From: Escherichia coli
GTDB taxonomy: Bacteria > Pseudomonadota > Gammaproteobacteria > Enterobacterales > Enterobacteriaceae
Reading direction: 5' to 3' (one strand)
NCBI RefSeq assembly: GCF_003334765.1
Contig: NZ_QOWT01000002.1
Length of the DNA stretch: 64,000 nt
In this document: piece after piece, positions 36,604 to 37,522 of the stretch
How positions within the stretch are numbered: position 1 is the first letter of the stretch
Layout: each line of letters starts with the position of its first letter
Position numbers and translations under genes: made by a program
The notes under the pieces: model-generated
What the model was told of the DNA's origin: nothing
Seen by the model: only the letters and a program-made list of their open reading frames with translations
Database searches by the model: none

Positions 36604-37522
36604 ATATTATCACTTACTGGCGGCTCATACTGAGCTGGTTAATGCTGTGCACACACAAACAAGCAATTCCATTTGTAATGTGCCTCCCTGGCAGTTTCAT
36701 CCGGAACCCGGACGAAAGTAAAAATGCATATGAGTTGCACTAAAAAAGCGACTCACATTGTTCCGTTATAATGCCTGAAGTAGATCACAGAATATATCTT
36801 CAGGGATCGCATATCTATTAAGTTACTCACTCTTTTCTATTTATGACATGCGCGTGTTTGTATAAATGTAAATGTGAGTCCTTGTTCCACTCTCGTGCAG
36901 CATCGCTGGTCATACGCGAACACGTACCAACAGCAATGGTGAGGCGGCATCAAGAGCAGGGATCCGTCATTTATCCGAGCATTTTACCCCAAAAACCTTT
37001 TATTTATAAGGGTCATTGCGAATTATCTGATGCAAAGTTATGTTATGTTAGGCAAAGTAATCTTCTATTATTAATAAGCACATCAAAACCTTTTTGAATA
37101 TTAAATAATAATTAATTAGCATCATCCTCATTCATTAATTCCGCTTAACAATAGTTTCACACCTTGCCCCCATTGCGACACCTCGGAAATCATCACGCAG
37201 TTAAACTCTCCGTAATGAGGAAATATCATCATCGCGTTTCATTAGTGAATTCTTAAATGAGGCATTTTCACACAATTATCTTACAGATAAAAAAACCAGA
37301 CTTACAATTAAGAATCAGAACAATTCACTATATAACATTGCATGTAAAGCATATACACCTCATTATTTTGTCATTATTAAGTTATTAACAGCACAATCGA
37401 GCCTTCCCCTCTGGCAAAATCTTATTCTGCAGACCTTCAAAACACCGTCCTGGGGGAGTACATTGTTCTAAGCTGACTTCCACGGCAGGGAGTGGCGATA
37501 ACAGCAAAAAAGGTCAAGATTC

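Follow-up and report, generated by a model that had tools for sequence, protein, structure and literature searches.

The long lrhA-alaA spacer of Escherichia coli is very probably a composite, vertically inherited control region of two divergent genes

The 919-bp gap between lrhA and alaA in Escherichia coli is very probably a composite and vertically inherited regulatory region of these two divergent genes, which has already been described and holds no hidden gene. The LysR-type regulator that lrhA encodes represses both flhDC, the master operon of the flagella, and rpoS/rprA. As we read the gap, about 40% of it (36604-36974) is transcribed as a long lrhA 5' leader, which is cut or terminated internally to give stable, Hfq-bound fragments. 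Upstream of this leader come a conserved distal lrhA promoter with about 190 bp of conserved elements and then an AT-rich stretch of about 250 bp that is free of sequence constraint and lies between the divergent promoters, and a compact, highly conserved alaA promoter with its 53-nt leader closes the gap on the alaA side.

The window, i.e. the whole 64,000-nt stretch of DNA that we analysed, is E. coli K-12 sequence and differs from MG1655 positions 2370039-2434038 by six SNPs in total, none of which falls inside the gap. The gap spans 36604..37522 between the coding sequences of lrhA (35665..36603, minus strand) and alaA (37523..38740, plus strand), and it has the same length in MG1655 (2406642..2407560), whose RefSeq record annotates no feature within it. 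A first-pass annotation had singled it out as unusually long and AT-rich in a window where most gaps are below 150 bp, and the counts agree on each point: the 61 gaps between coding sequences have a median of 58 bp, 49 of them are shorter than 150 bp, the lrhA-alaA gap ranks first in length with the neighbouring nuoA-lrhA gap (630 bp) second, and its GC content is 0.384 (0.307 over 37000-37400) against 0.514 for the whole window. The same annotation had placed both promoters and probably a long lrhA leader in the gap, as is confirmed by the 371-nt UTR with its +1 at 36974 and by the alaA transcription start site (TSS) at 37470. A scan of 35000-38000 against Rfam (E <= 1) returned only chance-level miRNA and sRNA matches, all outside the gap; a tRNA/tmRNA scan found none inside it, and repeat and tandem-repeat scans of the gap gave short chance matches only, with no REP/ERIC-like or mobile-element remnant. 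Promoter and terminator consensus matches were as numerous as expected from shuffles and are uninformative taken alone.

The region was found in all 5426 complete E. coli genomes. Furthermore, scanning species-representative genomes for LrhA yielded 80 loci, almost all in Enterobacteriaceae, and both genes could be placed in 77. In every one of these 77 species the two genes lie next to each other in divergent orientation, and the gap between them measures 764-1140 bp (median 943) and has a GC content of 0.35-0.44. On this comparative evidence the gap is ancestral, vertically inherited and syntenic, and not an insertion or a horizontal acquisition. To map its conservation, 78 gaps were aligned and 88 close species pairs were compared; the neutral benchmark was taken from the 4-fold degenerate sites of the two genes, which are 0.57-0.60 identical in these pairs. 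The close-pair identities were as follows:

36604-36690: the ~90 nt that directly precede the lrhA AUG, 0.95-0.98, strongly constrained
36690-36880: lrhA leader farther from the AUG, 0.72-0.88, moderately constrained
36920-36975: 5' end of the lrhA leader, 0.63, near neutral
36975-37040: lrhA promoter block, 0.81-0.87, constrained
37085-37165: upstream boxes, 0.79-0.83, constrained
37235-37400: AT-rich stretch, 0.52-0.60, neutral
37415-37458: alaA upstream and promoter segment, 0.84, constrained
37459-37522: alaA -10 and leader, 0.95-0.96, strongly constrained

In the alignment as in the close pairs, the conserved blocks coincide with promoters and proximal leaders. Blocks are present in the middle of the gap as well, so that the lack of them, which the first-pass annotation had named as refuting its reading, is not observed; those at 36974-37040 and 37085-37165 correspond to the lrhA promoter and its upstream elements.

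On the lrhA side, four promoter-proximal features can be distinguished:

36981..37009, minus strand: lrhA distal core promoter, with -35 TTATAA (37004-37009), a 17-nt spacer, -10 TAAAAT (36981-36986) and +1 at 36974
36761 and 36782, minus strand: two proximal lrhA TSSs giving 158- and 179-nt leaders (SMRT-Cappable-seq b2289, 2406799 and 2406820)
37013..37035, minus strand: conserved box GCATCAGATAATTCGCAATGA just upstream of the -35, from the alignment
37085..37165, minus strand: distal AT-rich conserved boxes (AATTAATTATTATTTAATATT; TGTGAAnnnTAnTGTTAAG..ATTAATGAAT), about -110 to -190 from the lrhA +1

The recombineering primer SM079 of Melamed et al., with the 3' end ATAAATGACGGATCCCTGCT, matches the minus strand from 36974, which fixes the lrhA +1 at this position. 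The -10 TAAAAT lies 7 nt before this published start, and both hexamers of the distal promoter are conserved across the 77 species, with flanks that vary. SMRT-Cappable-seq, in contrast, reports only 36761 and 36782 for lrhA, whereas Melamed et al. use the +1 at 36974, and dRNA-seq in Salmonella gives a 712-nt lrhA leader, which would imply a far-upstream start near 37315. On these conflicting data several lrhA promoters are likely, and transcription may extend into part of the 'spacer'. The box at 37013..37035 may be bound by a transcription factor or may serve as a second -10 (GATAAT), and a promoter scan whose match count equals that of shuffles lists CTAACA-18-GATAAT at 37051..37022. Farther upstream, the boxes at 37085..37165 reach a conservation of 0.53-0.68 family-wide and 0.79-0.83 in close pairs, with a neutral value of ~0.58. 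[quoted passage not shown] We infer which factors bind these boxes: presumably, LrhA itself, OmpR and the Rcs system act at the upstream elements.

Beyond the boxes, the sequence loses its constraint:

37166..37412, no strand: AT-rich spacer, GC ~0.35, ~250 bp, neutral sequence, kept length

Close pairs are 0.52-0.63 identical here, compared with 0.57-0.60 at 4-fold sites. Within E. coli, 997 genomes carry a spacer that is at least 99% identical, 1435 one at 90-95%, and 453 give no megablast match; as judged from these matches, the polymorphism is that expected of neutral DNA. Its length is kept, with an interquartile range of 241-249 bp in 78 species, and the distance between the alaA and lrhA TSSs, mapped through the alignment, has a median of 495 bp (interquartile range 489-499). 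We considered spacer length as a distinctive feature and rejected it, since the length of the nuoA-lrhA gap is held even tighter (interquartile range 626.5-631 bp), so that a kept length may be a general property of this area. Simple 'junk' does not explain a kept length where the sequence is neutral; the spacer itself would serve spacing or insulation only.

The alternative with the best standing, though a rather improbable one, also concerns this stretch. It holds that nucleoid-associated proteins (H-NS, Fis, IHF) use the AT-rich core (~37040-37410) as a binding platform and thereby silence the two divergent promoters or couple them. Such a platform would fit the GC content of the core (0.31-0.35), as well as a kept length with unconstrained sequence, which one would expect where composition and geometry are all that counts. 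However, unconstrained sequence drifts toward just such AT-richness (GC ~0.3-0.35) under GC-to-AT mutation bias, so that composition can also result from drift. The literature does place the gap in one group with csgD-csgB and nanC-fimB, which are long spacers with many factors, yet the genomic-SELEX table flags H-NS at other spacers and not at lrhA-alaA. Moreover, the locus is ancestral and syntenic rather than horizontally acquired: of the traits of the xenogeneic type it shows AT-richness (GC 0.31-0.38 against 0.51), but no patchy distribution (5426/5426 E. coli genomes, 77 syntenic species) and no mobile-element traces in the reference. With the neutral rate of the AT-rich spacer also in view, an H-NS/Fis binding domain, as proposed in the first-pass annotation, is an unsupported possibility that we do not favour over a spacing or insulating stretch.

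The alaA side is far more compact:

37415..37429, plus strand: conserved box CAAAATCTTATTCTG, centred at ~-48 of alaA, from the alignment
37436..37470, plus strand: alaA promoter, with -35 TTCAAA (37436-37441), a 17-nt spacer of variable sequence, -10 TACATT (37459-37464) and the TSS at 37470
37470..37522, plus strand: alaA 5' UTR of 53 nt from the published TSS, with the Shine-Dalgarno sequence AAGG at 37510-37513
37476..37493, plus strand: stem-loop ACUUCC-ACGGCA-GGGAGU, +7 to +24 of the alaA mRNA, string CTTCCACGGCAGGRAG

The box at 37415-37429 resembles an Lrp site, matching 12 of 15 positions of what we take to be the Lrp consensus, and offers a lead as a candidate activator site (Lrp-like). 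Both promoter hexamers are near-invariant in the aligned species and the sequence between them varies. Published SMRT-Cappable-seq data place the TSS of alaA-yfbR at 2407508, which is 37470 of the window. The leader that starts there measures 47-54 nt in all species aligned, with a close-pair identity of 0.95-0.96.

Within this leader, covariation is suggestive of an RNA stem-loop at +7 to +24. Among 65 distinct sequences there is little or no variation in the ACGGCA loop and in the two innermost C-G pairs, and one pair flanking these inner pairs covaries (A-U in 42, G-C in 12, G-U in 8). Cells changed on both sides of the stem number 27, as compared with 11.1 in shuffles (0 of 500 reach 27), and 81% of the cells are paired, as compared with 42-58% for slid partners. 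The outer pairs covary but are often unpaired, and five of the six core pairs vary little or never, which speaks neither for nor against pairing. No Rfam family matches the alaA leader in the scan of 35000-38000 (E <= 1), be it a riboswitch, a leader or a thermosensor, and we know of no prior description of the stem-loop.

On the other side of the gap, the lrhA leader has been characterised by experiment, and its mapped and predicted sites are the following:

36604..36974, minus strand: lrhA 5' UTR of 371 nt, on which several Hfq-dependent small RNAs converge, from the published length, the primer position and the conservation
36615..36636, minus strand: UhpU pairing site overlapping the ribosome-binding region, windowed duplex prediction, -19.9 kcal/mol
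36681..36697, minus strand: predicted ArcZ pairing site (CCAGGGAGG against ArcZ UUUCCCUGG, ArcZ nt 59-79), windowed duplex prediction, -19.7 kcal/mol
36643..36649, minus strand: CACAGCA motif, almost universal in the alignment of 78 gaps, within the most conserved part of the leader (36604-36690)

The lrhA 5' UTR has been called "unusually long 371 nt", and in RIL-seq, which maps sRNA-target pairs on Hfq, it is bound by UhpU, ArcZ, RprA and McaS (PMC10578931). Published experiments further established that UhpU, ArcZ and RprA repress an lrhA-lacZ fusion, and a compensatory mutant proved the pairing between UhpU and lrhA. McaS forms the most RIL-seq chimeras with the leader, yet leaves lrhA-lacZ unchanged, and the authors suggest inhibition of McaS as a possibility. 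To locate pairing sites we relied on a windowed duplex search, as RNAduplex of the full-length sRNAs against the leader gave meaningless long duplexes. The UhpU partner in the predicted duplex is the stretch of UhpU adjoining its terminator. Comparison of the published lrhA-M1 gBlock GAGCCGCGAGT with the wild type GAGCCGCCAGT identifies the mutation as C->G at 36619 (-16), that is GCCGCCAGU -> GCCGCGAGU, and this published position lies inside the independently predicted UhpU site at 36615-36636. RNAalifold found no consensus structure on the conserved proximal leader, which implies that what is conserved around CACAGCA is the sequence; the motif may be a pairing site for RprA or ArcZ. Within the species, in contrast to the spacer, the leader is at least 99% identical in 5064 E. 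coli genomes.

The leader also gives rise to stable fragments, and their published 3' ends lie at two places:

36653, minus strand: RNA 3' end that precedes the lrhA AUG by 50 nt (Term-seq 2406691(-); Rho score 1.06, 'No'; intrinsic-terminator score 3.75)
36889..36941, minus strand: hairpin 36898-36941, followed by 3' ends at 36895 and 36889 (Term-seq 2406933 and 2406927)

Counted from the +1, the end at 36653 defines a leader fragment of ~322 nt, which fits the ~350-nt band bound to Hfq. The end at 36895, 3 nt past the hairpin, defines an abundant 5' leader fragment of ~80 nt, and the ends at 36889/36895 have a Term-seq count of 78199 versus 46870 at the 3' end of the lrhA mRNA. All three ends are labelled 'orphan' (Adams et al. 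2021). The 80-nt RNA folds at -22.2 kcal/mol, and the first 90 nt of the leader have a z of -3.0 in E. coli, where the mean of 78 species is -0.57. This 5' segment is GC-rich and strongly folded in E. coli only, the hairpin is specific to the Escherichia lineage, and the sequence diverges about neutrally even between Escherichia species, whereas its flanks are 95-100% identical. We thus rejected a shared structure in the 5' 90 nt of the leader, with E. coli alone strongly structured.

Two proposals would give these elements a wider role, and we hold both to be unlikely. The first covers two readings: that the ~80-nt and ~322-nt leader fragments titrate McaS or other sRNAs in trans, and that the alaA stem-loop, with its fixed ACGGCA loop, is an undescribed cis-element that controls the synthesis of alanine transaminase or the stability of its mRNA. 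The second, which we find distinctly improbable, is that the stable fragments have a function in trans, perhaps by sequestering McaS or another sRNA in the manner of a sponge or decoy, so that the leader would be target and regulator at once. It would account for the rank of McaS at the top of the RIL-seq chimeras without an effect on lrhA-lacZ; the fragments bind Hfq, the end at -50 is Rho-independent with a terminator-like score of 3.75, and regulatory RNAs derived from 5' UTRs provide a precedent from 3'-end mapping (Adams et al. 2021). However, the 80-nt part is devoid of conservation, and the authors of the Hfq co-immunoprecipitation (co-IP) study regard accumulation as an expected by-product of sRNA- and RNase E-mediated decay.

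The first-pass annotation had thought an unannotated sRNA conceivable; that the gap carries a gene of its own for an Hfq-binding small RNA appears very improbable. The observations that would call for such a gene are real: Hfq co-IP recovered RNAs of 150 and 350 nt that were initially classed as intergenic 'ig-lrhA-alaA', and the 'orphan' 3' ends at 36653, 36889 and 36895 include one that outnumbers the 3' end of the lrhA mRNA. Yet every mapped 3' end is on the lrhA sense strand and downstream of the +1 at 36974, and the authors of the co-IP study themselves settled on these RNAs as belonging to the lrhA transcript, i.e. as leader fragments. In the same context, the lrhA transcript is destabilised by Hfq, and lrhA transcripts of 1.5 and 1.25 kb are raised in an hfq mutant. 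Moreover, Rfam gives no match at E <= 1, the consensus scan, whose match count equals that of shuffles, finds no terminator-like site in the gap, and the ~90 nt that give the 80-nt species are neutral within Escherichia and carry no cross-species structure signal. The earlier suggestion is thus borne out in part, by the Hfq-bound RNAs and the orphan ends, but these are pieces of the leader and the separate gene falls away.

A small protein gene or regulatory upstream ORF is hardly credible. The gap holds 26 ORFs of at least 12 codons, and one of 28 aa (36700..36614) belongs to the most conserved block and stops 10 nt short of the lrhA AUG. However, each of the 26 is broken in at least one of five close relatives, ORFs survive only where the DNA is identical anyway, the 28-aa ORF loses its start codon outside Escherichia and has its frame broken by indels, and the current MG1655 RefSeq record annotates none. 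The earlier judgement that the short ORFs are spurious was thus right, and its companion suggestion of a small protein finds no conserved or annotated ORF to rest on.

Natural variation bears on the promoter and leader of lrhA in particular. The leader was not recovered in one piece in 60 of the 5426 E. coli genomes and the promoter block in 46, and a split match in the spacer occurred in only four. About 1% of complete E. coli genomes have an IS disruption of the lrhA leader or promoter, where the assignment to IS elements comes from four example genomes. They comprise an IS1 in the lrhA leader; an IS5 140 nt upstream of the lrhA AUG with ~390 bp lost; an IS1-associated deletion that takes the 5' end of lrhA, the leader and the promoter; and a deletion that extends from elaD to the far side of lrhA and is bordered by IS1 and an IS5-family element. 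In E. coli, ST131 and Serratia, transposons inserted into the gap are reported to change the expression of lrhA/pigU. The natural disruptions agree with such screens, in which motility or the levels of LrhA/PigU are altered.

The region is the same locus as the published E. coli lrhA 5' UTR and lrhA-alaA spacer (Melamed et al. 2023; Bilusic et al. 2014; Shimada et al. 2014), from which it differs in nothing essential. A genomic-SELEX survey lists the "920 bp-long lrhA-alaA" among long multi-promoter regulatory spacers. What we add to these publications is a map of conservation across the family, the finding that the spacer evolves at the neutral rate, the alaA stem-loop and the IS census. Like the class described by Adams et al. 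2021, the 5' UTR of lrhA contains discrete 3' ends, one of them Rho-independent with a terminator-like score; unlike in that class, a role of the lrhA fragments in trans is putative. The leaders of rpoS, csgD and flhDC are likewise long 5' UTRs of global regulators that integrate several Hfq-dependent sRNAs, and like them the lrhA leader belongs to a divergent spacer of unusual length and AT-richness that receives input from many transcription factors; ArcZ and RprA regulate both rpoS and lrhA. In contrast to these leaders, all sRNAs tested on lrhA repress, and the lrhA leader is conserved in its last ~100 nt only and yields, with RNAalifold, no conserved inhibitory hairpin of the rpoS type. 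Orthologous divergent arrangements are found in alaA-pigU of Serratia, where transposon insertions in the gap raise PigU/LrhA, in lrhA of Salmonella, whose leader is also very long (712 nt versus 371 nt in E. coli), and in hexA/pecT of plant-pathogenic Enterobacterales, although the downstream regulons of these loci differ (CRISPR-Cas, pigments).

In summary, LrhA stands near the top of the decision of E. coli between motility and stress or biofilm, through flhDC, rpoS/rprA, type 1 fimbriae and, recently, CRISPR-Cas, and its control region is important biologically, an importance already recognised in print. For genome scanning the locus serves as a positive control, in that an unusually long AT-rich divergent gap correctly pointed to a regulatory hub. 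The leads that remain are a possible role of the leader fragments in trans, the alaA stem-loop and the recurrent IS disruption in natural isolates.

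At nucleotide level, the window differs from MG1655 (NC_000913.3) by six single bases, at 8958, 13701, 36370, 38579, 39911 and 60285, and it is therefore a relative of K-12 rather than the MG1655 reference itself. The difference at 36370 is a synonymous change within lrhA: the LrhA protein is 100% identical to that of MG1655. Two features lie around lrhA and the divergent alaA:

35035-35664: nuoA-lrhA gap, 630 bp, GC 0.386, second in length among the gaps of the window
37476-37493, + strand: stem-loop ACUUCC-ACGGCA-GGGAGU, +7 to +24 of the alaA mRNA

Among 65 distinct Enterobacteriaceae sequences, the loop and inner stem of the alaA stem-loop show little or no variation, and covariation (A-U, G-C or G-U) is seen at one flanking pair. 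Rfam holds no entry for this +7 to +24 element, and we know of no earlier description of it.

The length of the nuoA-lrhA gap is nearly constant across 71 species (IQR 626.5-631). Published Term-seq data place very abundant "orphan" 3' ends (counts of 282730-475924) at 35044 and 35048, just 10-14 nt upstream of the nuoA start codon, and a further "orphan" 3' end within the gap at 35259.

On the other side of lrhA, comparison of E. coli with two other Escherichia genomes (loci L003 and L004) reveals a sharply mosaic identity pattern, in which the initial ~90 nt of the lrhA leader (36886-36975) are only about half identical, flanked by a promoter (36976-37125) and a proximal leader (36604-36700) that are 99-100% identical. 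L003 (NZ_JAATUR010000019.1) carries the name Escherichia coli; its lrhA shares only 87% nucleotide and 94% protein identity with K-12, with identity at 4-fold sites of ~0.67, and the genome probably belongs to a different Escherichia species that was filed as E. coli. In Salmonella Typhimurium, dRNA-seq reports a 712-nt lrhA leader, which by position would put an additional lrhA promoter within the AT-rich spacer, around 37315; no conserved promoter-like signal was found around this site in E. coli.

Among 5426 complete E. coli genomes, the lrhA leader is broken up in 60 and the promoter block in 46 (~1%; tallies covering 36604-37170), and the neutral spacer (37166-37412) is split almost never, in just 4. 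All four interrupted loci that we inspected (L002, L089, L090 and L091) carry IS1 or IS5 insertions, some together with adjoining deletions that remove lrhA sequence; one of these deletions starts at elaD, crosses the nuo operon and reaches lrhA.
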